A stretch of DNA of 64,000 nucleotides, taken from positions 1 to 64,000 of the forward strand of contig PRDI01000075.1 of the NCBI GenBank assembly GCA_003345595.1, read 5' to 3'. The notes under the pieces were generated by a model, which had not been told where the DNA came from, ran no database searches, and saw only the letters and a program-made list of their open reading frames with translations. Shown piece after piece: positions 11,431 through 41,160 of this stretch. Origin of the DNA: Candidatus Thorarchaeota archaeon (GTDB taxonomy: Archaea; Asgardarchaeota; Thorarchaeia; Thorarchaeales; Thorarchaeaceae). A program made the position numbers and the translations under genes. The first letter of the stretch is position 1. Every line of letters starts with the position of its first letter.

Positions 11431-12525
11431 ATGCTGCGGCTTGATAACATGTCCAAAATCTGTACGGCCGTGATTACGCTCATGGTAGTCTTATCCTGTT
11501 TAGAGAGTACCGCAAGCGCTCAGACCCCCCTTGACCCGGTCGTCATCCTGTACGATGCCTCCCACGGACCACAGTTTGCGGCGGACGACGCAGACAAGGG
11601 CCTCAAACTCATGCTTGACCTGGTCAATGCGTCAACAAGATACATGGTCCGTGTCAACGAGGTTTCTCCCATCAATGACACCATATTGAAGGATGTAGAC
11701 GTCCTAATTCTCGCGTCCCCCGATCGAACTTATGAGTTCACCAAATCGGAAGCATTGTCAATCGTAGAGATGCTGAACAACGGTAGTTCATTGATGATAC
11801 TCGGTGATCCTGCCATCAGCTCGAACTCCACGTATTGGTCGGGTGAGCCGGCTTTCCAAGACTTGGGGGACAATATTGCAGTCAATCGGCTCTTGGACCT
11901 ACTAAACATCACCGGTGTTGGGTTCAGTATCAATGCGACTGGTGACGACAACTTCTGGCCGGACACAATGTTTGACTATGAACGCGCCTTGAACAACACA
12001 TATCCCTGGGTGATACGGCTCGATCCTACGACATGGGAATCAAGCCATCCAATCTTCAAAGACATCAACGAACTGATTCTGATGACCGCCTCTCTAAAGC
12101 CAGTGTCCCTAGTCAGTTCGATCGCACATGGTGCGAAGACCTCATTTGCCCAGTTCAGAAAGGGTCCTAACACCTTCGCCAACTATTCCTTTCCAAACAT
12201 GAGCTTGGCCGAGTTTGAAGAACGCCCGCTCTCCTACTCGGCAATTAACGGCACACTCCCACCATGGCTCTCCGCCTTTGAGTACAACAACAGCAGGGTT
12301 GTGATATCAGGCTCCACAATCATGTTCACAGGACGTCTTCTTGATTTGCCCAAAGCCGAGGTCAAATGGTTCTATGCAGCAGATAACTCCCGGCTTTTCA
12401 TGAACATACTCGGCTGGCTCTCAGAAGACTTCGTCGAACCCGAGACCGCCGTTATGCCCATGCTGTTGATCTCATCCGCGATTCTTGTAATCGGTGTTGT
12501 CTTCTATTTGGCTAAGAAGAGGTAA
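11431..12525 (+). CDS. Signal-peptide, C-terminally anchored GIFT/GATase-like glycoprotein (WBP1/OST48-like candidate)
   Basis: YDASHG, DVLILASP, GSSLMILGD, NNSRVVISGS..N..L..NILGWL; C-terminal TM plus AKKR; 11 N-X-S/T sequons. Confidence 0.7.
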   Translation: MLRLDNMSKICTAVITLMVVLSCLESTASAQTPLDPVVILYDASHGPQFAADDADKGLKLMLDLVNASTRYMVRVNEVSPINDTILKDVDVLILASPDRTYEFTKSEALSIVEMLNNGSSLMILGDPAISSNSTYWSGEPAFQDLGDNIAVNRLLDLLNITGVGFSINATGDDNFWPDTMFDYERALNNTYPWVIRLDPTTWESSHPIFKDINELILMTASLKPVSLVSSIAHGAKTSFAQFRKGPNTFANYSFPNMSLAEFEERPLSYSAINGTLPPWLSAFEYNNSRVVISGSTIMFTGRLLDLPKAEVKWFYAADNSRLFMNILGWLSEDFVEPETAVMPMLLISSAILVIGVVFYLAKKR

Positions 12526-12539
12526 GCTGTGGAAAACGC

Positions 12540-13148
12540 TTACCAGGTGGGTATCTGCAGGCCCTCAGCCTGCAAGACTCTCTCTATCTCGTTCCTGAGC
12601 TCAACGATATTCGTCCCCTGCTTAGCCGAAAGTGGGACAATCACGGGAGCAAGTCCCTTCTGTGGAATCTTGTCATGCAGATAGTCTATCTCTTCTGCTC
12701 TGTTACCACTTGGCAGCTTGTCAATCTTGTTAGCGACTACTATCACGTGTTGAGATATCTCAGAAAGGAAGGTATAGAATTCCATATCGATTGGAATCTC
12801 TCCCTTGTTTTCCCATCTCTCGACGAGCTCTCGGAAGAGCGAGATGTCTATGACGAGGACCGCCAAGACTAGGCGACCGCTCCAAGACTCAAGCTTTTGC
12901 ACGAGTGCGGTCTTTGCCCGTTCAATGGCCTTCCTTCCCTGTCCAGCCATGTGGCCAAAGCCCGGTGTATCAACAAAGAGCACGGCTCCGAGATCAATAC
13001 TCTTCTCCCATCGTGTGGTCCCTGGACGCTTGCCTACCTTGAGTCTTCGGCCTGTGAGTGCTCTCATCACGCTACTCTTACCCACGTTGCTTCGTCCAGC
13101 GAAAACGACCATGGGTTTCTCATTCCCAGAATGGTCTTGTTCTGGCAT
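12540..13148 (-). CDS. engB: EngB/YihA-family GTPase
   Basis: GRSNVGKSS, GKRPGTT, DTPGFG, NKID; archaeal RW..GEIPID.EFY. Confidence 0.9.
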   Translation of the reverse strand: MPEQDHSGNEKPMVVFAGRSNVGKSSVMRALTGRRLKVGKRPGTTRWEKSIDLGAVLFVDTPGFGHMAGQGRKAIERAKTALVQKLESWSGRLVLAVLVIDISLFRELVERWENKGEIPIDMEFYTFLSEISQHVIVVANKIDKLPSGNRAEEIDYLHDKIPQKGLAPVIVPLSAKQGTNIVELRNEIERVLQAEGLQIPTW

Positions 13149-15960
13149 AGTTCCGCTCCGCCTCTGCAATCTGCCTGAGCAGACTGACTCTGTCTGTCAT
13201 TCCCGGACGCAGTATACGAGATGCTGTCGTCGGTCCAATTCCACGTCCGGCCAGCGCTAGTAGGGCAATCCTGCCATACGTTGCCACAAGTTCTGCTGTC
13301 AGGACGCCTGCAGCATAGAGCTTTCTCTTGTCCTTAGGTACCCTTCGGCCGGCTTTCACTGATTTCACTGTTCCTGAAAGCTCCGAGTCGTCCGGAGAAA
13401 CTGCTGCAATCATTCTTGATCCACAGCTTGGACAGGACACTATCTCGTCCAAAGTGGATACTGTCCGAACCGAGTTCCAATCTCCATTGGCCATACACAC
13501 GAGTCTGAACTGTTTTGCGAGAAGTCTGGCCTCCATAAGCCGAAGAATCTCGTTCTCATCAGTGATTTCACCTAGCACCTCGAAGCGGCTCTTTTCCTCA
13601 ATTATCAGGCGTGCGAGTGGCGAGGGTTTGTCGGTTACTACAGTATAGACGTCCACAGTCCCAGATGAGATTCGGTCGAATAGGTCGACGACCATATTCT
13701 CGTCCAGTTTGTCGTGCAGCACCTCTCTCATCGCCTCTTCGTAGACAGGTCCGTCCTGAAAGACATCTATCAGGCGTCTGACCGGGATGTCCTTGACCCT
13801 TATGTCTCTTCTAATCACACCCATTCTACGGGCGACATGGATGAATCGGGACGCGAATGTCTGCGTGTGTTTCACTGCTAGTCGAAGTATCGTCGAAACC
13901 TGATTGCCTGTATATCCCTTGAGCGTGTCAACAACACGATTCAAGTCAAGCCGTGCCGTCGAAGTCAGAAGAATTCGGTAGGGATCTCTCTCAACACCCA
14001 CGTCTGCTCCGATGCTCGTTGTCAGTAGAGCTGCTACGACAATGCCGAGGGTTTCATTTGCCTTGGTGCCGAACGGGGTATGAATGACCAAACCCGATCC
14101 GAAGTCCTCAACCAAGACAGAGTCCGCAGACGGCAACCTGCCCAATGACTCATGGCTCTGCACCACGGTTCGAATCATGTAGTCTTGTGTTGTTTCATCT
14201 ATCCCGTAGTGAGTCTGTAGCCAATTCCGGGCTTCAGCATTCGGTTCTCTCAGTGTGGAGTTCCAGAGCTTGGCAACCTCCGATGCAACCTCATATGGGA
14301 CCGGGATCATCTCACCAATCCAATGTGGTGCCTCGGTGTCAACGCTGGTTGCTGGTGCACAGAGGACCTCTTCTTCATCCACACTTACAACAGTCCAAGA
14401 CTTACCCCTTATGACAAGCAGCGAGCCGCCTTGCAGATTCTGTGTGACATAGTCTTCGTCCAATACACCTATGGATGTCCTCGTAGTCATGTCTAGGGCG
14501 TTCAGTTGTCTAACATCTGGAATTGTGCTCAAGTGCTCGTAGTAGAAGACCCGTGTCTTCCTGCTAGCTGAGATTCTTGAGTTCTGTATGCGTACAATTC
14601 CTCTCTCGGCCATAAAGTCCAGCACTGAGCCGAGTTCCTCATCAGTCACCTCCACGAACGGGTATGCTCCGTGTATCAATGCTGTGAGATCCTTGCGGTC
14701 TATCTGATGCGTGTCAATGACAACCCCAGCTATCTGATGACATAGAACGTCCCAAGCCTTCTTGTGTATGCTTGCGTCCTCGACCTTGTTCGACAGGGCA
14801 CGTCTAAGTATCACCGCTGACTCAGTCACGTCGTCGAGATTAACGGTTGCCAGAAACACCCCCTCTGCGATCTTGTCGAGTCCATGGCCGGCGCGCCCAG
14901 TACGCTGCAAGGCGCGGGCCACTTCTCGAGGGGACGAATACTGGACGACTAGGTCTGCCTGTCCGATGTCTATGCCAAGTTCCAGACTTGACGTAGCGAT
15001 GATTGCCCTTGAGAGTCCCTGTTTCAAACGAGTTTCAGCAGCCACTCGGGTGTCCTTTGAGAGTGACCCATGGTGGACATCAAACTCAAATGGAGGTTTG
15101 AGAGCGTGCATCTTGGCGCCAAGGACTTCCGCGAACGACCTAGTGTTAGTGAACACTATTGTCGAGGTATGTGATTGCACTAGATCAACGATTCTTCGAA
15201 GCCTCGCTGTGGAGTTCACGGGATAGGAGATTCTCTTGGAAGTTTCAATATCCTCAGTAGTGGGTTGTGGCATTTCCACTCTCAAGTTCATCTTCCGTAG
15301 TCCATATCCCTCCCACAGGATTCTTGTTTCACCCTTCGGCCCGCTCAAAAGGGCCATAACAGCCCTAGGGTTCCCGACGGTTGCGGACAGCCCTATTCGT
15401 TGTACTCGCCCCCCTACGGCTTGGTCCAGCCGTTCAAGACCAAGACTGAGCTGTGTCCCTCTTTTGCTGTCGGCCAGTTCGTGTACCTCGTCGACAACCA
15501 CGGCAAACACAGTCTTGAGATGGTATCTGAGCCTCGGCGCTGGCAGGATTGCCTGAAGCGACTCGGGCGTCGTTATTAGCAGGTGAGGTGGTGTGATGGC
15601 CTGCTGTCTTCGCACATATTGTGTTGTATCACCGTGCCGGACAGCCACTGTGAAACCCAATTTGCCACAGAGGCCCTCCACTCTTCCAAACACGTCCCTG
15701 TTGAGTGCTCTTAGCGGCGTTATGTACAGGATGTAGACCCCAAACAGGTCTCGTTTCTGCTGTTTTTCTCCAAGGAGTTTCAGTAGTGGTAAGAGGGCCG
15801 CTTCAGTCTTGCCGCTGCCTGTGGGGGCGAGTAGAAGCATGTCGCTGCGTTCAGTCAGTATTGCTGGAATCGCCTTCTCTTGGATCGGTGTGGGCTTCTG
15901 GATACCACGAGCTGACAGGAATTCGGAAATCTCTGGACCTAGAGAATCAAAAGCACTCAT
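13120..15960 (-). CDS. lhr: Lhr-type SF2 helicase
   Basis: APTGSGKT, TTPESL, DEVHE, HHGSLS, SSLELGIDIG, QRTGRAGH; C-terminal zinc motif. Confidence 0.92.
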   Translation of the reverse strand: MSAFDSLGPEISEFLSARGIQKPTPIQEKAIPAILTERSDMLLLAPTGSGKTEAALLPLLKLLGEKQQKRDLFGVYILYITPLRALNRDVFGRVEGLCGKLGFTVAVRHGDTTQYVRRQQAITPPHLLITTPESLQAILPAPRLRYHLKTVFAVVVDEVHELADSKRGTQLSLGLERLDQAVGGRVQRIGLSATVGNPRAVMALLSGPKGETRILWEGYGLRKMNLRVEMPQPTTEDIETSKRISYPVNSTARLRRIVDLVQSHTSTIVFTNTRSFAEVLGAKMHALKPPFEFDVHHGSLSKDTRVAAETRLKQGLSRAIIATSSLELGIDIGQADLVVQYSSPREVARALQRTGRAGHGLDKIAEGVFLATVNLDDVTESAVILRRALSNKVEDASIHKKAWDVLCHQIAGVVIDTHQIDRKDLTALIHGAYPFVEVTDEELGSVLDFMAERGIVRIQNSRISASRKTRVFYYEHLSTIPDVRQLNALDMTTRTSIGVLDEDYVTQNLQGGSLLVIRGKSWTVVSVDEEEVLCAPATSVDTEAPHWIGEMIPVPYEVASEVAKLWNSTLREPNAEARNWLQTHYGIDETTQDYMIRTVVQSHESLGRLPSADSVLVEDFGSGLVIHTPFGTKANETLGIVVAALLTTSIGADVGVERDPYRILLTSTARLDLNRVVDTLKGYTGNQVSTILRLAVKHTQTFASRFIHVARRMGVIRRDIRVKDIPVRRLIDVFQDGPVYEEAMREVLHDKLDENMVVDLFDRISSGTVDVYTVVTDKPSPLARLIIEEKSRFEVLGEITDENEILRLMEARLLAKQFRLVCMANGDWNSVRTVSTLDEIVSCPSCGSRMIAAVSPDDSELSGTVKSVKAGRRVPKDKRKLYAAGVLTAELVATYGRIALLALAGRGIGPTTASRILRPGMTDRVSLLRQIAEAERNYARTRPFWE

Positions 15961-16196
15961 CCAAACGACTTCCTTAGTCGGAGCGTGTGACGAATGGCAC
16001 TCACTAGGATGCGGATGTCGGTTCTGAGTGTAGCATCAGCATCGCATGCCCTGTTCTCAAGCAGTTCTATGGCCTCGTTCGGAGAGGAGATCTGTTTCAT
16101 TATCTCCTCGACCAGTGACTGCACTATGTCAAGATTGGACAGGTGCGGTGCAGATCTCTCGAATGCCTGTTGGACTATTTCTTCAGTGTTCATCAT
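15957..16196 (-). CDS. Small helical hypothetical protein, stop overlapping the lhr start
   Basis: 79-aa ORF with ATGA coupling to lhr. Confidence 0.7.
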   Translation of the reverse strand: MMNTEEIVQQAFERSAPHLSNLDIVQSLVEEIMKQISSPNEAIELLENRACDADATLRTDIRILVSAIRHTLRLRKSFG

Positions 16197-16216
16197 GAGG
16201 TGGCTCTGGACGTGCC

Positions 16217-16321
16217 TTACTCTTCCTCTTCCTCACCGTATGCGACGTAGCCCAAGACAAGGAGAAGGGCCACGATTCCCAAGACGTACAAGACAATATC
16301 GATGACTGGGATTATCTGCAT
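16217..16321 (-). CDS. Unannotated 34-aa single-pass membrane microprotein MQIIPVIDIVLYVLGIVALLLVLGYVAYGEEEEE (OST4-like candidate)
   Basis: ATG about 30 nt downstream of TATA (TTATAA 16352-16357); one TM helix and an acidic tail; fills the intergenic gap. Confidence 0.7.
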   Translation of the reverse strand: MQIIPVIDIVLYVLGIVALLLVLGYVAYGEEEEE

Positions 16322-16388
16322 AGGTATCAGATGGCTCCGTCTGAGTGTCACTTATAATCATTGCTGACTGAAAAGATTGATGCAGTGG

Positions 16389-16640
16389 CTATTCCTCTGT
16401 CTTTGCGCTCTCGTAGAATCGGTCAATGAAGCTGCCGTAGACATCTACAGGCTCGGTGAGCGAAGTGACATCGTCAATAGTCATCTCAAGTCCACAGGAG
16501 CCGCACTTAACAGTGGCGACTTTCTTTTCTCTAAGCAGTTCTATCTTGATTGCCGCATTACCACAGCTTGGGCATTGATAAACGTCAGGAATCCGCTTTT
16601 GTGGTCGTCGTCGGATTTTCTGCCTTCTTCTTCTTCCCAT
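16389..16640 (-). CDS. elf1: Transcription elongation factor Elf1
   Basis: MGRRRR..CPSCG..CGSCG..EPVDVYG.FID. Confidence 0.92.
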   Translation of the reverse strand: MGRRRRQKIRRRPQKRIPDVYQCPSCGNAAIKIELLREKKVATVKCGSCGLEMTIDDVTSLTEPVDVYGSFIDRFYESAKTEE

Positions 16641-16795
16641 GATTCCTCACCTTTGCCTATTTCGCACAGACCGAGCTACAAGGCACGGAGAAACAGAGCG
16701 ACTCCGGCCTCGGCTGGGATTCATTTAAGCGTTGCGTTAAGTCCCGATGAGTTTGGGGTTCGAAGGCTTCTTATTGCAGCTGCCGTGCGACATGA

Positions 16796-17032: not shown

Positions 17033-17036
17033 GAGA

Positions 17037-23846: not shown

Positions 23847-23868
23847 AATCATCCAGTCGCAGAGTCCT

Positions 23869-24750: not shown

Positions 24751-24945
24751 TGTTGAAGCAACTCCGGTATGGGATAGAAGGGCGGCGGATTCTAGCACAC
24801 ATGCCATACAGGCAATTGTGGTGGCATCTGAGCCAGAACAAGACTAAGGTCCTGTCTTACCTTTTATGTCTATCTTTTGGAGGGCGTAGTGAGCCGATCA
24901 CTCGCATCATGCTCCTGTGAATGTTGTGGCTGGTTGCTACTCATG

Positions 24946-26248: not shown

Positions 26249-26302
26249 TACTCTTGTTTCGTACCAGATGAGTCATAAGCATAACGGGCGACTGACTGAC
26301 CA

Positions 26303-28998: not shown

Positions 28999-29138
28999 GG
29001 GAGTCGGTTTTCAGTGATTGGTTGACGACTGATAATGATGTTGTTTGCTATTGCCAAAAGCCCGGTTGAGGTATTGTATCGTGGGCCATTCGGCATTGAT
29101 TTATCGTCGACCTGTTGTCCATCTAGCCGGGGCTACGA

Positions 29139-29483
29139 ATGGAATCAGGCGAGATTCAGGACTTTGAAAGCGAAACAGAACGTGCTCGGCTGAAAGTGCG
29201 AGTCATGCATCTTGAAAACGGGCTCTTGATTCTAATCTCAGATTCAGAGCGGTTTCGCTTGGGCCTCTCGGCTGTAGCAGTCCCAGGTGGATCTGGTAGA
29301 CCGGAGCCCAGTTCCACAGGGTTCCTGTCTGTCGGAGAGGAGGCTGTACAAGTGCGCATTCTGGCCGAAACTGTTGCGAAACGTACAGGCCAGATGTGCA
29401 TGGTGGTAGTCGCTGTCAAAGAGCTAAGCCGTGCCTTCCTGATGGACATCACTAGGACTCTGAGGGAACATGTCCCGAAGTGA
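29139..29483 (+). CDS. Proteasome assembly chaperone PAC4(PSMG4)/PAC3-like protein
   Basis: VMHLENGLLILI..L..AVAVP..PSST..L…LAE.VAKRTGQ...V resembles recalled PSMG4. Confidence 0.6.
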   Translation: MESGEIQDFESETERARLKVRVMHLENGLLILISDSERFRLGLSAVAVPGGSGRPEPSSTGFLSVGEEAVQVRILAETVAKRTGQMCMVVVAVKELSRAFLMDITRTLREHVPK

Positions 29484-29682
29484 CGTAGTCAATCACTTCC
29501 TGAACCCACGGTCCGAGTCCCTCGACGTGGCGTAGTGCGGCAAGATAGTCCATCCAGCCAATCTCCAGCGCTCTCTTCCATCTGTCAAATGCGATGTGTA
29601 GTCTGTCAAGGGCCTCTCGGTGAAATCTGCATAGCTCGCTGTTGTCTACCGATTCACGGCCGCAGAGTGGGCAGTCTGTCAG
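29452..29682 (-). CDS. Unannotated 76-aa CxxC..CxxH zinc-finger protein downstream of topA; CTG start
   Basis: (M)TDCPLCGRESVDNSELCRFHREAL…WKRALEIGWMDYL…GPWVQEV; SD GGAGGTGA; CTGA overlap with the topA stop; in-frame stop 3 codons upstream. Confidence 0.8.
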   Translation of the reverse strand: MTDCPLCGRESVDNSELCRFHREALDRLHIAFDRWKRALEIGWMDYLAALRHVEGLGPWVQEVIDYVTSGHVPSES

Positions 29683-31814: not shown

Positions 31815-31962
31815 TTCTATTCGCCTCTGGTTCTCTTGCTGTCGTCGATACTCGCGTGTTTTTAACAATGACTCTGTGCCACGCTTATGTCATGGTACAG
31901 GCCTACATCTCACGATATTTTTAAAAGCAGACCTACCGACCTCGCTCGCTGAGGTTTGCCAG

Positions 31963-32376
31963 TTGCCTGTATGGTGGCCGCGATTCATAATTAAGCCGCA
32001 AGTACGACTCACGAGGCCCCGTTTTGGAATGCCTGCACGTCCTCCCGACATAGTCCTCTTTGGAGGCCTGTTGCTGGTGGTCCTGTTTATTATGGGTGGC
32101 AACATTTACACGCTAGTCAAGACCCCACCCGCGATTGCTGCTGACTCATCAGGAAATCCAATCCTTATTGCGCCAGGTATTGATGTCCAGCTTGGACTGG
32201 AGGGGATTGTGGCCTCGGTCGTCATTTTCATAGGAACTGTTGGTGTTGGTCTCGTCTATCTGTCCTCAAAGTATGTTTTCCAGCCCGGCTACGCAACACG
32301 TCTGATGGTTCTTGGTGCAATACTTGCAGGGGGCGCATTCTTAGTCATAAGCTACCTCTATGGTCTTAAGACGTAG
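31963..32376 (+). CDS. OSTC/DC2 (OST3/OST6 family) oligosaccharyltransferase subunit homolog
   Basis: P..RL.RP, LFIMGGNIY.LV..PP.I, Q.G.EG..AS; three TM helices; TTG start with SD GAGGT. Confidence 0.85.
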   Translation: MPVWWPRFIIKPQVRLTRPRFGMPARPPDIVLFGGLLLVVLFIMGGNIYTLVKTPPAIAADSSGNPILIAPGIDVQLGLEGIVASVVIFIGTVGVGLVYLSSKYVFQPGYATRLMVLGAILAGGAFLVISYLYGLKT

Positions 32377-32468
32377 GGGACGCGGCAGGTCCGCAGAACG
32401 TGCCGGCAGCGCTCCAGTCAGACAGAGCACGAAGAAAGAGAATTTCCATTTGCCCCATAACGAGTCAC

Positions 32469-33182
32469 TCATCTGAGCTGAGTATAGGGCACATTAGTTT
32501 CTGCAAGCAGAGCCGAAACAAGTTCTTTGGCAATCTCAAGCTTAATCTTCTTCCTGTCATCCGCCTGATAATGAAACGCCCTGTCCGGTTTTGACCAGCG
32601 TCCAACCACGGTTCCGAAATCCATTCCCGCAAGGACTATGTGTCTTGGCACGTAGTGCAGCGCAATGTGACACGCCCTGTCTCCATCAGTGAACCCACCC
32701 CAGAGAAACGCTCTGTCAGTAGGCTCTACCTGAGTGCTCCCGAGTGCCTCCTTCAGTGTGGGAACGAACTGCTTGACTCTGTCCATGTTGTCGCCATGCG
32801 CGTGTACTATTGGTAATGCTCCGTTCTTTATGACACGCTCCAAATCCCCTCTGTTTCCATCGAGGTCTGTCACAAGCACATCACAGTGTCGATCCTGTTC
32901 TAAGAATGCAGTGGCTGCACCGTCAGCAGCGATATAAGCGGCGTCTTTGAGCTCTGCCATCTGAGCGGTTTCTCTGAGATGCCGTTCGAGAGAGGGTCCT
33001 GCCCCACAGACAACGACTTCATGATTGTAGATTCGGTTTCTGAGGCGAAACAGGATTGGGGCGGGGTCTATGCCTCTGAGTAACGACGTGAGCAGAACAG
33101 TTGCATTTCTGTCGGCCTCAACACTCAGTGCCAGTCTTCCGACTATGTCAAGATAGACTGGCTGCCAAGAGCTCCACTCCAT
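32469..33182 (-). CDS. mptE: 6-hydroxymethyl-7,8-dihydropterin pyrophosphokinase (archaeal type)
   Basis: GAGPSL, AADGA, VTDLDG, HAHGDN, GGFTDGDRA. Confidence 0.9.
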   Translation of the reverse strand: MEWSSWQPVYLDIVGRLALSVEADRNATVLLTSLLRGIDPAPILFRLRNRIYNHEVVVCGAGPSLERHLRETAQMAELKDAAYIAADGAATAFLEQDRHCDVLVTDLDGNRGDLERVIKNGALPIVHAHGDNMDRVKQFVPTLKEALGSTQVEPTDRAFLWGGFTDGDRACHIALHYVPRHIVLAGMDFGTVVGRWSKPDRAFHYQADDRKKIKLEIAKELVSALLAETNVPYTQLR

Positions 33183-33188
33183 GACAAA

Positions 33189-34403
33189 TCACCCGACTTG
33201 ACGACTGCGGTCGGCCATTAGTGACTGTATTCCCTTGGCGATATCTATGAGTCGAAAGTACTGCATCTTGGATATCCTCTTTGTCATTCTTCCAAGCTGA
33301 AGAGGTGTTCCCATTATCAGGATGTCCGTGTGATCAGTGCGATGATCTATGACATCGTGATGATAGGCTGCATCTCCTCCAACCGCTAGCATCTCCTGCT
33401 TGATTATGAGCGCCGCGGAGGTCGGAGCCTCCCTGATCCGGAAGCTGAGCATGACTGCCTTTTCAGCCAATGGATGAACGATTTCTGCATCTGCACCCAG
33501 TTGCTCGATCACGAGTGCAGCCTCTCTCTCATTAGAGAGATCCATTAGCTCAATGTTATCTCTTGTCATCAATGAGGAGTGCCTGAGAGCACGTCCGATT
33601 ATCGCCGCCATACGAGCTTCTTCCACGTCGTGCGCGCGAATCATGTCCGCACCGTTTGCGACTGCCAGGGATGTGGCAGCAATTGTGCCAACGATACGCG
33701 CCGCCGGGTCGGGTTGGCCAAGCAGTTGGCCTATGAACGCCTTTCTCGACACTCCCACAAGGAGTGGACGTTCCAATAATGTGAACCGCCTGAGGTTTCT
33801 AATAATCGACAAATCAACGTCAGTAGGTTTTCCGAAGCCAATACCCGGGTCCACGACAATCCGTTCATATCCAATCCCCTCCTCAATTGCTTTCTTCATG
33901 CTTGTCTTGAGTGTGTCCAGTGTTGCATCCAGACCTAGACACGGTTCTCCACAGTCCGCCATCAGTATGATTGGCACATCTGCATCTGCGACCAGCTTTC
34001 CCATTTTGTTGTCCGTACGAAGGCCTGAAACATCGTTGACAAGGGCTGCGCCAAGGTCCAGTGCCGCATGTGCAACAGTGGCGGAAGTCGTGTCGATAGA
34101 TACCGGAAGATGTGTGTTGTCAACGATTGATTTGAACGCCTCTGAAACTCTTGTCAGCTCCTGATCCGCACCTACTCTAGTTGTACCGTAGATGCTCTTT
34201 GGCGCACTGGAAGCGGCGCCCACATCGATGATGTCTGCACCTTCCCGTTCTATCTCCTGAACTTGTCGAACTATCTCGTCCCTTGAGGTCGCCACAGATC
34301 CGCCATAGAACGACTCAGGAGAGAGATTGATTACACCCATGACCCTGGTTGGGTTTTCGCGTCCAACCTTGAGTCCGTCGATGTCGGTTTCGCAAAGGCC
34401 CAT
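33189..34403 (-). CDS. folP: Dihydropteroate synthase with extra C-terminal domain
   Basis: MGVINLSPESF, SIDT, NDVSG, DPGIGF, GVSRK, RAHDV; tail IIKQEML..GGDAA. Confidence 0.88.
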   Translation of the reverse strand: MGLCETDIDGLKVGRENPTRVMGVINLSPESFYGGSVATSRDEIVRQVQEIEREGADIIDVGAASSAPKSIYGTTRVGADQELTRVSEAFKSIVDNTHLPVSIDTTSATVAHAALDLGAALVNDVSGLRTDNKMGKLVADADVPIILMADCGEPCLGLDATLDTLKTSMKKAIEEGIGYERIVVDPGIGFGKPTDVDLSIIRNLRRFTLLERPLLVGVSRKAFIGQLLGQPDPAARIVGTIAATSLAVANGADMIRAHDVEEARMAAIIGRALRHSSLMTRDNIELMDLSNEREAALVIEQLGADAEIVHPLAEKAVMLSFRIREAPTSAALIIKQEMLAVGGDAAYHHDVIDHRTDHTDILIMGTPLQLGRMTKRISKMQYFRLIDIAKGIQSLMADRSRQVG

Positions 34404-34491
34404 GACTGGCTTTCCTCGGCTAGCCGATAGTATGGAAGAAGATAAAACCTAGGGGATGCGACAACCCCAACACCTGAGGCGGTGAACGGAG

Positions 34492-35637
34492 ATGAGCGAA
34501 AACCTAGGCAGAACACACCTCTACGATTGGCACAAGTCACACGGAGATGTAATCCCATTTGCAGGCTGGGAGATGCCCGTTCGATACACGGACATCCGTG
34601 AGGAGCATATGGCTGTAAGAAAGTCCGTTGGCATATTCGACACCACACATATGTTTCGCTTTCTCATAAGTGGTCCTCAAGCACCCGATTTGCTGCAGAC
34701 TGTCACTACAAACAGCATCTCCAAACTGGGGATGAATGAAGGGCACTACTCGACTTGTCTTAATGAAAAGGCAGGGATTCATGACGACCTCATGATATAC
34801 AGAATTGGTGAGCAGAAGTACATCTGGATAACTAACGCATCAAATGGTCCAAAGATCAAGGCGCACCTAGCAGCACATGCCAAGCAGTTCAAGGTCAGTG
34901 TCGAGGACAAGTCACGAGACATTGTGATGATAGCAGTACAGGGACCACAGGCATTGACGCTGCTATCAAAGATGGCTGGAGAGGACCTCAGAAAGCTTGC
35001 CCGGTTTAGCTGTAATCCCATTAGGTTTGCGGGTCGCGACTGTTACTTATGTCGTACGGGCTATACAGGAGAGGAAGGCGGAGAGATACTGCTACTGGAC
35101 ACGCCGTTTAGTGAGGCTGGAAAGAAGAAGGCTATCTCATTCTGGGAAGAGATACTCAGACAGGGAAAGGACCTTGATGTGAAGCCCTGCGGGCTCGGCG
35201 CCAGAGACTCGACAAGACTTGAGGCCGGATTCGTACTTTACGGACACGAGCTCAACGAGGAGATTACTCCACTTGAGGCTCGGATTTCCTATGCAGTCAA
35301 GTTCAAGGTCGAGCCGCACTACATAGGCTACGATGCACTGCTGAAGCAGAAGCAGGAGGGTGTCACTAGAACACGTATTGGACTGCTGATGATAGACAAA
35401 GGTGTTCCACGTGAGCAATACCCCATCATGCTTGGCAACCAGCAGATAGGGGCCGTGACAAGCGGCGGCATGTCGCCTGTGCTCGACTGTGGTATTGCGT
35501 TGGCCCTCGTCAAAGCCGATGCCGTGAAGGAAGGTGACACTGTTGAAGTGGACATAAAGGGGCGACTACGAAAGGCCCGAGTGACAGGCTGGCCCTTTTA
35601 CAATCCTGACGAGTACGGGGAGAACAGAACCCATTGA
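34492..35637 (+). CDS. gcvT: Glycine cleavage system T protein
   Basis: FAGWEMP, RTGYTGE.G.E, GLGARDSTRLEAG. Confidence 0.95.
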   Translation: MSENLGRTHLYDWHKSHGDVIPFAGWEMPVRYTDIREEHMAVRKSVGIFDTTHMFRFLISGPQAPDLLQTVTTNSISKLGMNEGHYSTCLNEKAGIHDDLMIYRIGEQKYIWITNASNGPKIKAHLAAHAKQFKVSVEDKSRDIVMIAVQGPQALTLLSKMAGEDLRKLARFSCNPIRFAGRDCYLCRTGYTGEEGGEILLLDTPFSEAGKKKAISFWEEILRQGKDLDVKPCGLGARDSTRLEAGFVLYGHELNEEITPLEARISYAVKFKVEPHYIGYDALLKQKQEGVTRTRIGLLMIDKGVPREQYPIMLGNQQIGAVTSGGMSPVLDCGIALALVKADAVKEGDTVEVDIKGRLRKARVTGWPFYNPDEYGENRTH

Positions 35638-35694
35638 TACACAAATTAATTAAAGGGTTCTCGTTCCCACAGCAGGAACAGAAGGTGCGCGTAG

Positions 35695-36108
35695 ATGTCG
35701 AAAGGCACTTCCAAGGCAACCAAAGTCATCGATGGTCTATACTACACGAAGGAACACGAATGGGCTAGGGTTGAGGGCGACCTAGTAGTAGTTGGAATCA
35801 CCGACTATGCTCAGCACGCTCTCCACGAGATTACCTTTGTTGAGATCATGCAGTCCGGCACAACTCTCAACGCCGGCGAGGAATGTGGCCTCGTTGAGTC
35901 GATGAAAGCCTCTTCGGATGTCTTCTCGCCAGTTTCTGGTCAGATAGTTGAGGTCAATACGTCGCTCGAAGACTCTCCTGAAACTGTGAACGAGGATCCG
36001 TACGGAAAAGGTTGGATGTACAAGATACGCCCCTCGAATCTCAAGGCGGACCTGAAGAAGCTCATGGACAGCAAGGCCTATGCCTCCTTTGTCGCTTCCA
36101 AGACTTAG
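35695..36108 (+). CDS. gcvH: Glycine cleavage system H protein
   Basis: HEW, GITDYAQ, VESMKA (lipoyl-Lys), N.DPYG.GW. Confidence 0.96.
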   Translation: MSKGTSKATKVIDGLYYTKEHEWARVEGDLVVVGITDYAQHALHEITFVEIMQSGTTLNAGEECGLVESMKASSDVFSPVSGQIVEVNTSLEDSPETVNEDPYGKGWMYKIRPSNLKADLKKLMDSKAYASFVASKT

Positions 36109-36328
36109 GCAGAGAGTCAGTGCCGCATCGGCAGGGAGAGTCTGCCTTCAGAGGTAGAAGGTCTCGTGACCCGGTAAGTCCTTTGGATGTTGACTGAAGA
36201 CTCTTGCATCCGATTCCAAGTTGTCGTATGGATGACTGGAGCCGTACAATCGATTTACGAACAGCAACCTTTTTAGCGTATCCAAGAATCGCTCGGCCGG
36301 ATGCGCCCTTAATCGGAGACGTCACTCT

Positions 36329-39121
36329 ATGCCGAGCCTGAGTCACTTCAAAAGATCCGCTAGCAGGTTCCTTCATCAAGTCTTTCACAAACCAAAAGCA
36401 AAGATATCTCGAGGATCGGTCCTTCTCATCGTTGCTCTTTGTATCATAGTCGTTTCTGCTATAGCGGTTCGTCTAGAGCCACTGCTCGACTCACAACCGA
36501 TTGTCCATGAGTTTGACTCGTGGTATCAGCTTAGAGTGACTCAGTATATTGCTGCAAATGGATATGCATCATTCTTCAGCTGGTACGACCACATGAGTTG
36601 GGTGCCCTTCGGTCGCGACATAGCGGTCTCAACCTACATTGGTGTGCCGTTCACAGCCGCCACATTCTACTTTCTTCTTAATGGAATAGGTATCAGCGTG
36701 GATTTGGTGGTTGTCTGCATCATGATGGCTGGGTTCATGGGCGGCTTCGCGACACTGGCCACATTCTTTCTGGGGAAGGAGTTGTCGAACAAGTCAGTCG
36801 GACTCCTGAGCGCTCTCTTCGTGGCACTCATGCCTGCGTATATTCAGAGGACAACAGCCGGCTTTTTTGACAACGAGTCTATAGGCGTCTTTGCCATTGT
36901 GATTACCCTCCTCTTCTTCATGCGCTCTCTGAAGAGGGGTTCTCTGCCCTCTGCAGTGGCCGCAGGCCTATCTCTAGGCTATCTACAACTGTCTTGGGGA
37001 GCAGCAGACTTTCTTACGGACCTGTTTGCTCTCTATGCGTTCTTCATGTTAGTCACAGGTCGATACAGTAGTCGTCTTCTCTCAAGCTACTTGATCACGT
37101 TGAGCTTGGGTCTCTTCATTGCAAATCTGCTGCCTCGTAACAGTTTCCTGAACTCGGGGGCACTCACTTCTCTCACATTCCTTGCTCCGGTAGGGGTGGG
37201 TGTCTTGCTTGCAGGCTATGAGGTCTGGTTGCGGGTTTCAAAGTACCGTGAGGCCACAGCAGGTGCACTGGCTCCTCATATGAAGCCAATCTTGCTAGGG
37301 ATAATCGCTCCAGTCCTTGGTGTGACGGCCTATTCCGTATTTGCAGCTGGTCAAAACCTGCAGATTTCAACACTCACTTCTAACCCCATAACTTTCGTCG
37401 GTGGTAAGTTTCTCGCTGTCATTAACCCCTTCTATCGACTTGACCAGCGTATCTTCGCATCGGTAGCCGAGCATCTCCCTGCTCCCTGGGCGAGTTTCTA
37501 TCAGACGCTGATTGTGCTGATATTCTTCTTCCCGGTTGGAATGTACTTCCTGTTCAAGAGGGGCCGCGATGAAGACTGGTTGGTAGTCCTCTTTGGAGTC
37601 ACTGCAGTGTACTTCACGGGTAGTATGATCCGTCTTGGCCTGATCCTAGCACCCGCAGTTGCACTACTTGCTGCTGTCGCCGTGAACGGTGTCTTGACGC
37701 CATTCGCAAGGGTTGTTTCTCAGAAGTCCGTTTTCGAACGTCGCAGGTTTCGAATCAGCTCGTCCCTTACTTCAGAACACACGATTGCTGTCTTTACGCT
37801 CATAGGACTGCTGCTTTCGGTCAATGTCTATCTTGGAGTTCAGTACGCTGTCCAAGTAGGTGCTCCTGAGTTCGCGCCCTCAAAGCTCAGTGACACGAGC
37901 CAGTTTCTCGACTGGCAGACTGCAATGACATACGTCCGTAATGTCGTTCCCAAATCGGCAACAATAGCCAGCTGGTGGGACTATGGATACTGGATAACGT
38001 GTGCTGGCGCGGGACGGTCGATTGTAGACAATGCCACCTTCAATGCCACCCAGATAGCTCTTATGGGCTATGCCCTGATGGCTCTCAATCTCACTGAGTC
38101 ACTGAAGACCTTCAAGCTGTGGAATGCATCACATGTACTGGTATACTGGGGACACGAGCTCTCGTTCTTTGGTGGGGACGAAGGAAAGTGGCCCTGGATG
38201 GTCCGCATAGCTGAAGACTATCTCGGGTCGTCAGTCATAGATGACCGTACGTACCTCGGGGACAATCTTGCGACCACGAATACAATCGAGACTGACTACA
38301 CCCTCGATCCTTTCTACTCCTCGACCCTGTATAGACTGATGTCATACGGTGAACCACTCACCTCAACCGAAGCCGATGAGTGGGGTCTGCCGAGTGGAAG
38401 GAAATCGGTTGACTTCTATCAACCTCAAGGATACAGTTCTCCAATCAGTTATACGGGCGACACGAGATGGACCTCTCATATGCCTATCGACCTACACGGG
38501 GCGTTCAAGGGCCCCTACTATAGCTCAGACTATGGCACAGTCAAAATCTACGAGATCGACTACACCATGTATGAGCAGTATCTCAATAGGACTGCCGCTC
38601 AGTGGGCCCCCAAGGAGGGCACATTGACTGGTGTCAAAGCCGACGGCGTTCTCTCTGCCAGTGAGAAGGCCTTCCAGAGCTTCGATGGAGTTCTTGGAGG
38701 CGGCTTTGATGCCAAAGTCTACGTACAGGCCAACTCCACACAACTGTACTTTGGTCTTGAGATGGATGATTACCAAGTCGGCAATGACGCCTTCGGCATA
38801 CAGATTGCGCCGCTGGGCCCGGTCACGGCATCAGACATCCGCATAGTGAACTATGCAGGCCATCAGTTCTATGACGGTCATATTGACTACAACGGTGATT
38901 GGGCCTTCGACTCAAGTGGGGCCAATGCAACGTTGTTTGGAACAGGAGAGAACGTCACCGAGCTGATATTTCCGCTCAACTCTCTCGATCCTCAGGACCT
39001 GAACCTGAAACCGGGAATGAACTATCAGATACGGCTGCTGTTCTGGGACAATGTTGACTCAGGAGAACCGACACTCGCGACCGATTGGCGAACCATCTGG
39101 GTGCCTGTGAGCTTGTACTGA
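36329..39121 (+). CDS. aglB: Oligosaccharyltransferase catalytic subunit AglB/STT3 with extra C-terminal beta-sandwich
   Basis: HEFDSW, GFFDNE, ASVAEH.P, SWWDYGY, DEGKWPWMVRI. Confidence 0.95.
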   Translation: MPSLSHFKRSASRFLHQVFHKPKAKISRGSVLLIVALCIIVVSAIAVRLEPLLDSQPIVHEFDSWYQLRVTQYIAANGYASFFSWYDHMSWVPFGRDIAVSTYIGVPFTAATFYFLLNGIGISVDLVVVCIMMAGFMGGFATLATFFLGKELSNKSVGLLSALFVALMPAYIQRTTAGFFDNESIGVFAIVITLLFFMRSLKRGSLPSAVAAGLSLGYLQLSWGAADFLTDLFALYAFFMLVTGRYSSRLLSSYLITLSLGLFIANLLPRNSFLNSGALTSLTFLAPVGVGVLLAGYEVWLRVSKYREATAGALAPHMKPILLGIIAPVLGVTAYSVFAAGQNLQISTLTSNPITFVGGKFLAVINPFYRLDQRIFASVAEHLPAPWASFYQTLIVLIFFFPVGMYFLFKRGRDEDWLVVLFGVTAVYFTGSMIRLGLILAPAVALLAAVAVNGVLTPFARVVSQKSVFERRRFRISSSLTSEHTIAVFTLIGLLLSVNVYLGVQYAVQVGAPEFAPSKLSDTSQFLDWQTAMTYVRNVVPKSATIASWWDYGYWITCAGAGRSIVDNATFNATQIALMGYALMALNLTESLKTFKLWNASHVLVYWGHELSFFGGDEGKWPWMVRIAEDYLGSSVIDDRTYLGDNLATTNTIETDYTLDPFYSSTLYRLMSYGEPLTSTEADEWGLPSGRKSVDFYQPQGYSSPISYTGDTRWTSHMPIDLHGAFKGPYYSSDYGTVKIYEIDYTMYEQYLNRTAAQWAPKEGTLTGVKADGVLSASEKAFQSFDGVLGGGFDAKVYVQANSTQLYFGLEMDDYQVGNDAFGIQIAPLGPVTASDIRIVNYAGHQFYDGHIDYNGDWAFDSSGANATLFGTGENVTELIFPLNSLDPQDLNLKPGMNYQIRLLFWDNVDSGEPTLATDWRTIWVPVSLY

Positions 39122-39165
39122 AAGACATACTTGCAGTGGTCTGTTGAGCAATCAGTCGTCTACGG

Positions 39166-39366
39166 TCAGGACTCTCTGGTTTCAATACCCGTTTCAGTCG
39201 CCACTCTACGCGAACTTCTCTTCGCTCTTCGACGATAGTCCCCATACTTGTCTTCGATGGAAAACCTCGCAGGCTGAGGGTCCTTGACTCGTCCTCCACA
39301 GATCGGGCAGGTCTTGTCATGAAGAGTGTATTTGCCGCACGCAATGCACTTGAAGAGATGGGTCAC
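39166..39366 (-). CDS. nop10: H/ACA RNP protein Nop10
   Basis: C..CGKYTL…CPICGG…P.PARFS.EDKYG.YRR; GTG start; follows aIF2-alpha. Confidence 0.93.
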   Translation of the reverse strand: MTHLFKCIACGKYTLHDKTCPICGGRVKDPQPARFSIEDKYGDYRRRAKRSSRRVATETGIETRES

Positions 39367-39379
39367 GTCGGATGAACTC

Positions 39380-40174
39380 CTACTTCCGGCTGAGGCTGAC
39401 CGATCCTCCATTGCCCTCAACGCTCTTCTTGACGATACTCATGATGCTCTGAAGCAGATCTTCTGCGTCCTTGTATGTTGGACCAACGATATGGAGTTTG
39501 TAACGAGGAGCGCCCAAGGCATAGATTTCAACCGAGAGTCTCTTGTCGTCCTTTCCCTGCTCAAGCGCATCCGACAGAGCCCTCTTAATCACTTCTATTC
39601 CCGCTGGCCCGGGCACAACAACAGACAACTCACCGTCTATGTCTACTGAAGGTATCTCGATACGCACCTTTGCCAGGTCCGCTATCTGTTTCTTCAGCTT
39701 CTTGTCGGCATTCACTTCTTCCAAGGCTTCCGGGCCGCCCTCTGCCGCGCGTTCAAGTCCTTTGTAGATCTCTCCATACGCGTCCTCAAGAGGCCATCCC
39801 AGCTGCTCATAGATCTGGTCAAGTGTTATCCCGTTCTCGTTAGCCACACTCTCGAGGAGCTTCTCAGCTTTCTGGGCGCGTTTCCATTCGTTGTTCTTTG
39901 CCCTCTTCGCCTCTGCAGACACCCTTCTGAGGGAGCAGTCGATATGTTTCTTCTGTGTGTCTACCTGAAGCACTTTCACGACGGTTCTCATGTTTTCATG
40001 TATGTGGTTTCGAATGTTTCGCACCCATGTGCTGCTGATTTCAGAGATATGGATGAACCCCTCCTTGTCGCCATACTCTGGCAGTGTCACATAGGCTCCA
40101 TAAGATGCCACCTTTGTAGCGACAGCCACTGCATAGTCATCAGGCTGCGGCCACTCAGCGCGCTTCTTGACCAT
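39380..40174 (-). CDS. eif2a: Translation initiation factor aIF2 alpha
   Basis: YGAYVTL.EY..EGFIHISE; GAPRY. Confidence 0.97.
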   Translation of the reverse strand: MVKKRAEWPQPDDYAVAVATKVASYGAYVTLPEYGDKEGFIHISEISSTWVRNIRNHIHENMRTVVKVLQVDTQKKHIDCSLRRVSAEAKRAKNNEWKRAQKAEKLLESVANENGITLDQIYEQLGWPLEDAYGEIYKGLERAAEGGPEALEEVNADKKLKKQIADLAKVRIEIPSVDIDGELSVVVPGPAGIEVIKRALSDALEQGKDDKRLSVEIYALGAPRYKLHIVGPTYKDAEDLLQSIMSIVKKSVEGNGGSVSLSRK

Positions 40175-40214
40175 GTATCACTGCCCTCCCAATCAAGTCA
40201 TGACGTGATGGCAT

Positions 40215-40424
40215 CTACTGAAGGGACTCGACTTCCCTAGCATTGGTTTCAAGTCTGGCTTTTCCACCGCTTGGCTTCGCCAATACCTTTCCACACTTCA
40301 GACACTTGACTTCGGTTGATGCATAAGCGAAGATGATTTGTTCGTTTTCGCAGTCCAGACATTTCACTTTCAGGAACCGCGACTTGGGTTGCTGAACAAT
40401 CTCTCGTCTGGCCAATACCGTCAC
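40215..40424 (-). CDS. rps27e: 30S ribosomal protein S27e
   Basis: P.SRFLKVKCLDC.NEQIIF..C.KCG..L..P.GGKA. Confidence 0.96.
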   Translation of the reverse strand: MTVLARREIVQQPKSRFLKVKCLDCENEQIIFAYASTEVKCLKCGKVLAKPSGGKARLETNAREVESLQ

Positions 40425-40608
40425 CGCTCTAATTCAAACATAATCGTCGCCGCAGTTGGGAAAACGATGCCCGACTTTGGGACTTGTTAGGGCCGGGTTG
40501 AGCTTTCATTATAACTCTATCGACACAACGTCGAACTTCCGCCTCAAGAAACCATGAATGCACATCTCACCGAATGAGTATCGGAATGAGATCTTGCTGT
40601 TGGCTGGT

Positions 40609-40890
40609 CTATGCACGAACAACCTCAAGTTTCTTCAGTCTCATGCCCTTGGTCATGAAGACGAATCCACAGACCTTGCACTTGTAATTGAGTGCAGTCT
40701 TCTTGGTTGTCTTGGCAAACTTGTGTTGGATTGGCTTTGGAAAAGAACCGTAGCCTTTCGTCTTTCTGACCAGTCTTCGCTTGCCCTGCGCCATTGTCCG
40801 GTCTTGTCCCTTCTTGTAGGTTGATATGGTGTGTTCTGTATATTTGTGGCATTTGGGACAGTATTTGTTCATCGACCCCTTGATGTTCAT
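40609..40890 (-). CDS. rpl44e: 50S ribosomal protein L44e
   Basis: YCPKCHK.T.H…GYGS.PKP…KTTKK…C.VCG. Confidence 0.96.
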   Translation of the reverse strand: MNIKGSMNKYCPKCHKYTEHTISTYKKGQDRTMAQGKRRLVRKTKGYGSFPKPIQHKFAKTTKKTALNYKCKVCGFVFMTKGMRLKKLEVVRA

Positions 40891-40980
40891 CTCAGAATCA
40901 CCGGCGTTCGGGCCGTCGGAAACGGCTGTGAGTTGTTTATAACCGTTGGGGCGCGTCGCATCCTCTTCTGAGTATTGCGA

Positions 40981-41160
40981 CTACAGAATATGAGCTATAA
41001 TGGTGGCGACTACAAGTATGGATGCGAATACCACGACCACCGTCGGGCCTATCTTCACACCTGGAGTCTCGTCTTCAAAGAACCTGATCAGCCCTGCACC
41101 ACCTGAGGGCATCGGTCCTTCACCCTTCTTGCTCTTGCGCTTCTTGGCGGTCTTCGGCAT
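40981..41160 (-). CDS. secG: Preprotein translocase subunit Sec61-beta (59 aa, missing from the ORF track)
   Basis: MPKTAKKRKSKKGEGPMPSGGAGLIRFFEDETPGVKIGP followed by a C-terminal TM helix. Confidence 0.92.
   Translation of the reverse strand: MPKTAKKRKSKKGEGPMPSGGAGLIRFFEDETPGVKIGPTVVVVFASILVVATIIAHIL

Follow-up and report, generated by a model that had tools for sequence, protein, structure and literature searches.

Is N-glycosylation in a Thorarchaeon the work of a lone catalytic subunit, as in most archaea, or of a small complex built on the eukaryotic plan? A multi-subunit oligosaccharyltransferase (OST) is a hallmark of the eukaryotic endoplasmic reticulum (ER), and the question is raised by a 64,000-nucleotide stretch of Candidatus Thorarchaeota DNA (hereafter the window), in which the segment 11431-41160 carries genes for an STT3-type AglB, a three-transmembrane (TM) protein resembling the OST subunit DC2/OSTC, a 34-residue peptide resembling Ost4, a GIFT-domain protein and Sec61-beta. 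An earlier note on this DNA had named these as five OST or translocon parts within ~30 kb, and all five were located at or inside the segment. The note had further proposed from them a multi-subunit complex of the OST-A kind. What survives of that proposal is its core: we put at roughly 60% the probability that AglB, the DC2-like protein and the Ost4-like microprotein together resemble eukaryotic subcomplex II, giving the organism a small eukaryote-like OST and not a lone AglB. The remainder of the proposal fares less well, as the GIFT protein resembles IFT52 at least as well as OST48 and neither DAD1 nor Swp1 was found.

The segment lies on contig C75 of a Thorarchaeota genome of 2.73 Mb in 129 contigs. 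Because this genome is 83% complete, the failure to detect a family in it does not demonstrate absence, a limit that applies to every genome-wide search reported below.

A eukaryote-type catalytic subunit

The sole STT3 match found in the genome is the AglB of the window, whose multi-TM N-terminal domain is recognized by PF02516 (5.9e-54, 184.6 bits, residues 32-448) and whose ~13 TM helices are followed by a periplasmic core and a C-terminal beta-sandwich. When all solved structures were compared, the closest was human STT3A (1.4e-86, residues 31-630), with fungal STT3, STT3B and yeast Stt3 (3.1e-76) among the further relatives; the archaeal PDB entries matched were C-terminal-domain chains only, at 1e-5 or weaker. 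Judged by these sequence comparisons, the enzyme is of eukaryotic type, nearer to human STT3A than to the solved archaeal AglBs, and the STT3-like label that it had been given from the DNA alone is well borne out. The motifs expected for catalysis and substrate binding (D63, D181-N-E183, S378-VAEH, W549-WDYG and D617..K620) are all present and are invariant across 23 family orthologues. On account of this family membership and these catalytic motifs, AglB is the STT3-type catalytic subunit and is expected to perform N-glycosylation.

One feature sets the Thorarchaeal enzyme apart from human and yeast OST. Its C-terminal ~190 residues, which have no Pfam match, are modeled as an additional DOMON/CBM9-like beta-sandwich (residues ~738-930, window 38540-39118; predicted local distance difference test score (pLDDT) 90), for which Foldseek returns NxrC at 3e-7 and a CBM9 domain with cellobiose at 5e-6, along with resemblance to the gamma subunit of ethylbenzene dehydrogenase and to the DOMON domain of dopamine beta-hydroxylase. 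This domain is conserved up to its final residues in 20 orthologues and, from the modeled fold, could serve the enzyme as a fused glycan-binding module.

A probable small partner of DC2/OSTC type

The three-TM protein is the only match to PF04756, the OST3/OST6 family, found in the genome at E <= 0.001. The match (34.9-35.9 bits against a cut-off of 27) covers only profile positions 185-288 of 294, the TM region at the C-terminal end, and the protein has no thioredoxin domain. A profile built from Thorarchaeal orthologues and compared with the PDB retrieved OSTC chains only (6s7o_H at 2.6e-4 and 6ftg_3 at 1.2e-3), with no Ost3, Ost6, TUSC3 or MAGT1 chain matched at E <= 10, and the motifs GG.IY..V..PP and Q...EG..S align between the Thorarchaeal proteins and OSTC. 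The earlier label of a three-TM OSTC/DC2 homologue is therefore well founded, and what has been called an Asgard "OST3/6" homologue is here, as far as profiles and motifs can tell, specifically of DC2/OSTC type. Such a three-TM partner lacking a thioredoxin domain, paired with an STT3-type enzyme, is also what is seen in the human STT3A-OST4-DC2/OSTC arrangement (6S7O, 8B6L). By homology to DC2 and Ost3, the protein would pack on the TM10/11/13 side of AglB.

Two starts are open to the gene, a TTG at 31963 giving 137 residues and an ATG at 32029 giving 115. Many gene calls clip the protein at the internal methionine, and almost all of the listed Thorarchaeal homologues are 116-142 residues long. 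The longer form is probably the true protein, since the 22-residue N-terminal extension that it includes (window 31963-32028) is conserved and one orthologue lacks the internal methionine altogether. This extension, WWPRFI.KP.VRL.RPRF, is very basic and constitutes a further departure from the human and yeast complexes. By hydropathy, the three hydrophobic segments span residues 30-48, 82-100 and 114-132, and the positive-inside rule would place the N-terminus in the cytoplasm, which is the topology of DC2 itself. The basic extension would then face the cytoplasm, where contact with the ribosome, lipids or the translocon is possible.

A separate observation concerns the part of the OST3_OST6 model that the three-TM protein lacks. 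In many Asgard genomes the N-terminal thioredoxin part of the model matches separate open reading frames (ORFs) of 120-200 residues that lie apart from the three-TM gene (for example G062:C1:1160823-1161083 and G030:C5:14724-14969). They could be thioredoxins of the ordinary kind, or else a lumenal domain of Ost3 type that has split off.

An unannotated microprotein predicted at the Ost4 site

Among the short intergenic ORFs of the region, only that of the 34-residue peptide is strongly hydrophobic. By tblastn, an ORF of 33-40 residues is open in 24 of 24 genomes of the same family at 38-97% identity, and all copies share an MQ start, a single TM helix, the pattern [GA]Y.VYG and an acidic run (the EEEEE tail), with L19, Y25 and G29 invariant. 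In every copy the gene sits between Elf1 and the pair formed by orf79 and an Lhr-type helicase, and a TATA-like box, ATTATAAG, lies ~30 nt upstream of the ATG. Since ORF, pattern and position are conserved family-wide and a TATA-like box precedes it, the peptide is, on this pattern of conservation, a real and previously unannotated microprotein. Its neighbors are of some note in themselves: orf79, a conserved 79-residue soluble ORF without a Pfam match, begins 20 nt past the peptide stop and overlaps the start of the Lhr-type helicase gene by 4 nt, and the apparent peptide-orf79-Lhr unit is kept across the family. The small transcription elongation factor homologue Elf1 on the other side (5e-19) is a protein of eukaryote-signature type. 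For the peptide itself the sole weak Pfam match, to DUF4500 at E = 0.016, was set aside as chance.

What suggests a role for the peptide in the OST is its predicted position on the enzyme. AglB residues 1-760, the DC2-like protein and the peptide were modeled together, each with its own alignment; the peptide was scored and the DC2-like chain was not. The interface score ipSAE between peptide and AglB was 0.73 (0.72, 0.73 and 0.75 in the runs), against 0.00 for the best of the controls, in which the peptide was exchanged for two unrelated 34-residue partners or AglB was replaced. In calibration, 58 of 80 solved complexes reached that mark, as did 2 of 110 mismatched pairs; the calibration is only rough for three-chain jobs with user-supplied alignments. 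The pLDDT of the partner never fell below 74, and the runs had 83% or more of their contacts in common.

The confident contacts of the peptide fall on AglB residues 28-54, 155-167, 452-463 and 485-508, which hydropathy assigns to TM1, to a fourth TM helix, to the stretch where TM12 ends and to TM13, the final helix. In yeast OST structures, Ost4 is nestled between TMH1 and TMH13 of Stt3 (PMC7226087), so that the model places a single-TM partner of ~35 residues at the published Ost4 site, in keeping with human OST-A and with yeast subcomplex II, Stt3-Ost4-Ost3/6 (6EZN, 6C26). The earlier note had asked for a prediction of AglB, DC2, the peptide and SecY/E/beta as a complex; for the peptide, the predicted interface coincides with that of eukaryotic Ost4. 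Peptide residue 12 lies near AglB 504 and residue 26 near AglB 453, a contact order that sets the N-terminus outside and the acidic tail inside, as in the eukaryotic complexes. The N-terminus of AglB is basic and conserved, and its R471-R472-R473-x-R475 loop is invariant; the acidic tail of the peptide would lie beside this basic N-terminus and the RRRFR loop, with which it may pair electrostatically. The peptide is thus predicted to wedge between TM1 and TM13 much as Ost4 stabilises Stt3. Unlike human or yeast Ost4, with which it has no sequence similarity, it ends in the acidic tail. As a candidate Ost4-like subunit it has accordingly been upheld in its predicted docking and not in its sequence. 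Beyond the family, weak peptide-like ORFs of 38-41 residues occur in three Asgard families of the survey described below (f13, f15 and f19), one of them 7.6 kb from an orthologue of the GIFT gene.

Gene linkage across Asgard genomes

To what extent does proximity of these genes carry information? A linkage survey covered 60 other Asgard genomes in 20 families, families being numbered here as in the survey. The DC2-like gene is present in 54 of the 61 sampled genomes. Within the family of the window's own genome the whole ~30-kb block is syntenic, and in most relatives the peptide and AglB genes lie ~20 kb apart on one contig; because this is inherited gene order, co-location at the family level says little. 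The earlier note had likewise treated co-location as weak evidence, and within the family that judgement holds.

It applies less to the pairing of DC2-like gene and STT3, the co-location of which exceeds family-level gene order to a modest degree, recurring in five Asgard families. The two genes lie 0.5 kb apart and divergent in f4, 1.7 kb apart in f21, ~4.3 kb in f3, ~4 kb in f1 and 7.5-17.5 kb in f5; in f7 and f13 the distance is 124-468 kb, and elsewhere the genes are on separate contigs. By our own arithmetic, the chance that two genes in a ~3-Mb genome lie within 5 kb of each other is ~0.3%, so the recurrent linkage provides modest independent support for a functional tie, not to be over-weighted given that related genomes are not independent samples. 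The orthologue of the GIFT gene shows a looser association with the DC2-like gene, at 2-7 kb in f5 and f11 and at 17-48 kb in f1 and f12.

The GIFT-domain protein and its relation to OST48

The protein that the earlier note had offered as WBP1-like presents a more ambiguous case. It consists of a signal peptide, one extracellular GIFT domain (residues ~35-335), a C-terminal TM helix from ~341 and a KKR tail, a layout that, down to the short basic tail, it shares with OST48 and Wbp1 (6S7O chain G, 6EZN chain G). Its sequence identity across Thorarchaeota is 55-90%, and it is annotated as a Gldg-family or hypothetical protein. Of its 11 extracellular sequons, eight recur in 28 or more of 29 orthologues, which makes it at least a conserved glycoprotein.

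In sequence, the assignment is to the GIFT superfamily in general. The Pfam family ABC_transp_aux, of GldG type, matches at 8.6e-11 (42 bits against a cut-off of 34.7), IFT52_GIFT matches weakly, and OST48_N (PF03345) gives no match to the protein at E <= 1 and none in the genome. Against the PDB, a Thorarchaeal profile finds IFT52 only (7e-4), and an Asgard-wide profile finds IFT52 at 2e-11 and human OST48 at 3.3e-7, the chain concerned (6s7o_G) being confirmed as the 48-kDa subunit; the motif R[IV].{2}SGS...FSD is common to the GIFT family and human OST48. In structure, the AlphaFold2 model (pLDDT 71) agrees best with the GIFT domains of IFT52 (Foldseek 5e-9; VIA-align Z = 21.5-22.0, root-mean-square deviation (rmsd) 2.6, 216 residues aligned), next with human OST48 (2e-7; Z = 18.4-19.4, rmsd 2.9-3.1, 232-235 aligned) and yeast Wbp1 chains (Z = 16.7-17.6), and then with generic ThuA/GATase1 folds (Z = 12-16). 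IFT52 (5FMR/5FMS) thus outscores OST48 in sequence as in structure, and ABC_transp_aux, of the GldG group, also matches better than OST48. Moreover, the second lumenal domain of OST48, between its GIFT domain and TM helix, is missing, so that unlike OST48 and Wbp1 the protein has a single extracellular domain; the Heimdall and Loki forms also run directly from GIFT domain to TM helix.

Relatives are widespread: each of the 61 Asgard genomes sampled has GIFT proteins related to this one. Those reached by the Thorarchaeal profile are labeled Baldr-, Hermod-, Hel- and Lokiarchaeota, the more distant ones Heimdall and Njord, and one cluster includes an Odinarchaeota member. Of 62 Asgard relatives, 40 are matched by ABC_transp_aux, 38 by IFT52_GIFT and 18 by OST48_N (best 5.3e-8), all at E <= 0.01; six relatives viewed individually gave OST48_N scores of 18.5-27.2 bits, all under the cut-off of 36. 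No bona fide eukaryotic OST48 was met among 20 proteins scanned individually from the 150 best matches to the Thorarchaeal profile. The Loki, Hel, Baldr and Hermod GIFT proteins match only the present gene in this genome, and a 430-residue Heimdall relative (P0347) has no tblastn match there. A Njord protein of the "Gldg family" best matches a different, cytoplasmic GIFT/coiled-coil paralogue on contig C66.

The GIFT repertoire of the genome is expanded, with five matches to the Asgard profile. The C66 paralogue (G000:C66:35230-36444) has 404 residues, no signal peptide and a long C-terminal coiled coil, a layout that recalls cytoplasmic IFT52, and its gene is convergent with a 325-residue multi-TM ORF resembling a GT-C-type glycosyltransferase. 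Another GIFT-related gene (G000:C10:7406-10171) encodes a 921-residue surface protein with a signal peptide, one or more GIFT-like regions, repeated immunoglobulin (Ig)-like segments and a C-terminal TM anchor.

The protein, then, is a member of the GIFT superfamily with, on the modeled structure, an OST48-like fold and topology, its orthology to WBP1 and membership in an OST being unproven; the type I topology and the GIFT fold agree with the earlier proposal, and the better agreement with IFT52, the lack of an OST48_N match and the missing second domain tell against it. It may help beside the enzyme, binding glycan or lipid-linked oligosaccharide, and may equally be only a heavily glycosylated substrate. 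That it is an OST accessory subunit and a prokaryotic forerunner of OST48/Wbp1, distributed across Thor-, Loki-, Hel-, Baldr- and Hermodarchaeota, is a doubtful proposition. The WBP1 homologues of Eme et al. 2023 (PMC10307638) are placed in Heimdallarchaeia and Njordarchaeales, whereas the protein described here is Thorarchaeal, with orthologues in lineages named Loki-, Hel-, Baldr- and Hermodarchaeota. If the proposition were true, a subcomplex-III-like element and a loose GIFT/Ost4-like/DC2-like/STT3 neighborhood would predate the Heimdall lineage, in which WBP1 was previously placed, and the same Asgard GIFT stock may have yielded IFT52 too.

How far does the complex extend?

Beyond the core, the earlier note had suggested a search of the genome for RPN1, OST5, DAD1 and TRAP, and the outcome is mixed. 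A two-helix Ost5-like protein of 65 residues on contig C82 scores 24.6 bits, just under the cut-off of 27.4. Ribophorin I (PF04597) has no match genome-wide, nor on a 985-residue candidate containing FKBP and Ig domains, the C-terminal domain of which matches PDB 8WHN, the MK-D1 "Ribophorin 1 superfamily" protein, at 1.9e-6. These two proteins could form an equivalent of subcomplex I. DAD1/Ost2 (PF02109) and Swp1/ribophorin II (PF05817) gave no match genome-wide at E <= 0.1, the ribophorin II model matching no control genome either, and TRAP-gamma (PF07074) and KCP2 (PF09775) were also not found genome-wide. TRAP-alpha reaches only 16 bits, and two TRAP-beta-like ORFs exceed the cut-off of a model that also matches non-Asgard control genomes. 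Sec61-beta, another part named at the outset, is confirmed by PF03911 (9.4e-14, 51.6 bits, residues 21-59), its gene preceding that of ribosomal protein L44e on the same strand; the subunit is universal in translocons, so finding it does not count as evidence for an OST complex.

Could these parts make up a full holo-complex of the OST-A kind, in which the five genes of the window act with the Ost1-like and Ost5-like proteins, the GIFT protein serves as WBP1, and the DC2-like subunit docks the whole on SecYE-beta for co-translational glycosylation? Such a complex would draw on the same evidence as the core, namely the OSTC-only structural matches, the relationship to STT3A and the docking of the peptide, and the DC2-type identity of the small subunit itself suggests an enzyme of STT3A type associated with the translocon. 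Contact between OST and Sec61 is made in mammals through DC2 and KCP2 (PMC5674889), and Eme et al. 2023 infer complex N-glycosylation and translocon machinery in Asgard archaea; the fold and topology of the GIFT protein, the recurrence of its gene in loose linkage with the DC2-like gene and the TRAP-beta-like ORFs point the same way. However, KCP2, TRAP-gamma, DAD1 and Swp1 are among the families not found, the TRAP-alpha and TRAP-beta matches are compromised by score and by specificity, and the GIFT protein is nearer to IFT52 and lacks the middle domain of WBP1. Eme et al. 2023 moreover confine Ost2 and Swp1 to Heimdallarchaeia, and WBP1 to Heimdallarchaeia and Njordarchaeales. Homology of the small subunit does not guarantee docking either, because yeast OST carries Ost3/6 and yet is uncoupled from the translocon (PMC6761772). 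By analogy with the mammalian system, it is plausible that the complex would dock on SecYE-beta through the DC2-like subunit; the full holo-complex is unlikely.

A lone AglB or a small complex?

Several observations weigh against even the smaller core. The GIFT, peptide, DC2-like, AglB and Sec61-beta genes are dispersed among housekeeping genes, each in a transcription unit of its own, as the earlier note had also held in saying that they form no single operon, and their nearness within the family is inherited. It is odd for an OST subunit gene to stand, as the peptide gene does, at the head of what looks like an orf79-Lhr helicase operon; the Pfam Ost4 model (PF10215) has no match genome-wide at E <= 10 and none to the peptide at E <= 1; and the peptide's own profile retrieves no OST4 chain from the PDB at E <= 10. 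The predicted complex may partly reflect solved OST structures that the predictor has memorised, and the calibration has the roughness given above. To these may be added the DAD1, Swp1, KCP2 and TRAP-gamma searches, the lack of a match for the first three setting the genome as found apart from human and yeast OST, as the lack of a match for Swp1 and Ost2 does from complexes containing OST48 or Wbp1, and the closer affinity of the one-domain GIFT protein to IFT52 and ABC_transp_aux. Binding of the partners is throughout predicted.

If these points were decisive, AglB would act as a single subunit as in most archaea, the DC2-like, peptide and GIFT genes would be unrelated to it, and the GIFT protein would be a glycosylated surface protein, in agreement with its Gldg-family or hypothetical annotation and its eight conserved sequons, which would suit a substrate of AglB. 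The separate transcription units, the syntenic block, the missing Ost4 sequence match and the several families in which STT3 is distant from the DC2-like gene or sits on another contig all fit this account. It is nonetheless quite unlikely: the TM domain of the OST3/OST6 family is known only as an OST subunit, and the match here is specific to OSTC; four families, drawn from different orders, have the DC2-like gene at 0.5-4.3 kb from STT3; the peptide docks at the Ost4 site when both kinds of control give 0.00; and the catalytic subunit is of the eukaryotic type, which works in a complex. That the three-TM protein acts alone in a small transporter-like or membrane-organising capacity, with the peptide belonging to another complex, is highly improbable, for although the Pfam title reads "OST3/OST6 family, transporter family" and the peptide gene precedes orf79-Lhr without adjoining OST genes, no transporter motifs or partners were seen, and the OSTC-specific match, the STT3 linkage and the predicted docking of the peptide on AglB all speak otherwise.

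The core of AglB, DC2-like protein and microprotein is accordingly the reading retained, in which two small membrane partners would bind the STT3-type enzyme in an arrangement equivalent to the STT3A form of eukaryotic subcomplex II.

The locus and its genomic setting

The principal features and their neighbors are collected in Table 1. The segment 11431-41160 is otherwise a housekeeping run that includes an EngB-type GTPase, the Lhr helicase, Elf1, a cysteine desulfurase, an RPA-like protein, the large subunit of DNA polymerase II, CDP-archaeol synthase, RadB-like and XPD-like (helicase) proteins, a topoisomerase, folate/glycine-cleavage genes, eIF2-alpha and L44e. A match to a PAC4-like proteasome assembly chaperone, also of eukaryote-signature type, scores 24 bits, below its cut-off. 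Homologues of the window proteins are almost all labeled Candidatus Thorarchaeota, and the GC content of the window is uniform at 51-53%.

Table 1. Coordinates of the OST- and translocon-related genes and of neighboring features in the window
Feature	Position	Strand	Basis
GIFT-domain type I membrane glycoprotein, 364 aa	11431..12525	+	Pfam ABC_transp_aux
Lhr-type helicase	13120-15960	-	
orf79, soluble ORF	15957-16196	-	
Ost4-like single-TM microprotein (candidate), 34 aa	16217..16321	-	family-wide conserved ORF and complex model
Elf1 homologue	16389-16640	-	
CBS-domain gene	24089-24820		
PAC4-like chaperone match	29139-29483	+	
OSTC/DC2-like three-TM protein, probably 137 aa	31963..32376	+	PF04756 (ORF 31876-32376)
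STT3-type AglB, 930 aa	36329..39121	+	PF02516
Sec61-beta (archaeal SecG/Sec-beta), 59 aa, tail-anchored	40981..41160	-	PF03911

Public sequencing runs give some indication of where the organism lives. When window positions 21500-41400 were compared with a wetland metatranscriptome, contigs with 0 differences were found over the CBS-domain gene, AglB and the Sec61-beta/L44e region, and in the same RNA run eIF2-alpha was covered by contigs with 0-2 differences. The identical contigs cover AglB at 36399-36903 and 37192-37366 and the Sec61-beta region at 40852-41098; for AglB this shows presence in the RNA library without proving transcription. No contig lay over the DC2-like gene in the range compared, outside which the GIFT and peptide genes fall, a result that is uninformative. 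For window 30001-40000, 45-97% of sampled words occur in DNA runs of three wetland studies and 9% in the run of a fourth. Together, these matches indicate that the organism recurs in wetland sediments.

Relation to published Asgard OST and significance

That some OST subunits had already been reported in Asgard archaea, as the earlier note said, is confirmed by two publications. Eme et al. 2023 (PMC10307638) treat Ost1, Ost3 and STT3 as already known from Asgard archaea and add homologues of Ost2, Ost4, Ost5, Swp1 and WBP1, with Ost4 and Ost5 occurring in most Asgard classes. Carilo et al. 2024 (PMC11417166) list OST1, OST3/6, STT3 and TRAP subunits of MK-D1 and find that its OST3/6 and STT3 localise to the ER in human cells. 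The genes described here belong to the same families in the same phylum. In the accessible portions of both papers the small subunit is named OST3/Tusc3 or OST3/6, without mention of DC2 or OSTC, and a search of the available literature returned no paper tying Asgard archaea to DC2, or to OSTC as a subunit name. The accessible part of the supplementary text of Eme et al. 2023 gives neither motifs of the peptide or the DC2-like protein nor Ost4 accessions.

The published picture (Eme et al. 2023) is thus unchanged: helper subunits of Asgard OST were already published between 2017 and 2023, and known biology is confirmed. The presence of a multi-subunit OST in Asgard archaea bears on the origin of the secretory pathway, for which the window provides a clean Thorarchaeal example, and three refinements are offered. 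The Asgard "OST3/6" homologue appears, from its profile matches, to be of the DC2/OSTC type that in mammals is part of the translocon-bound OST-A; an unannotated Ost4-like microprotein is strictly conserved and predicted to occupy the Ost4 site; and linkage of the DC2-like gene with STT3 recurs in five Asgard families.

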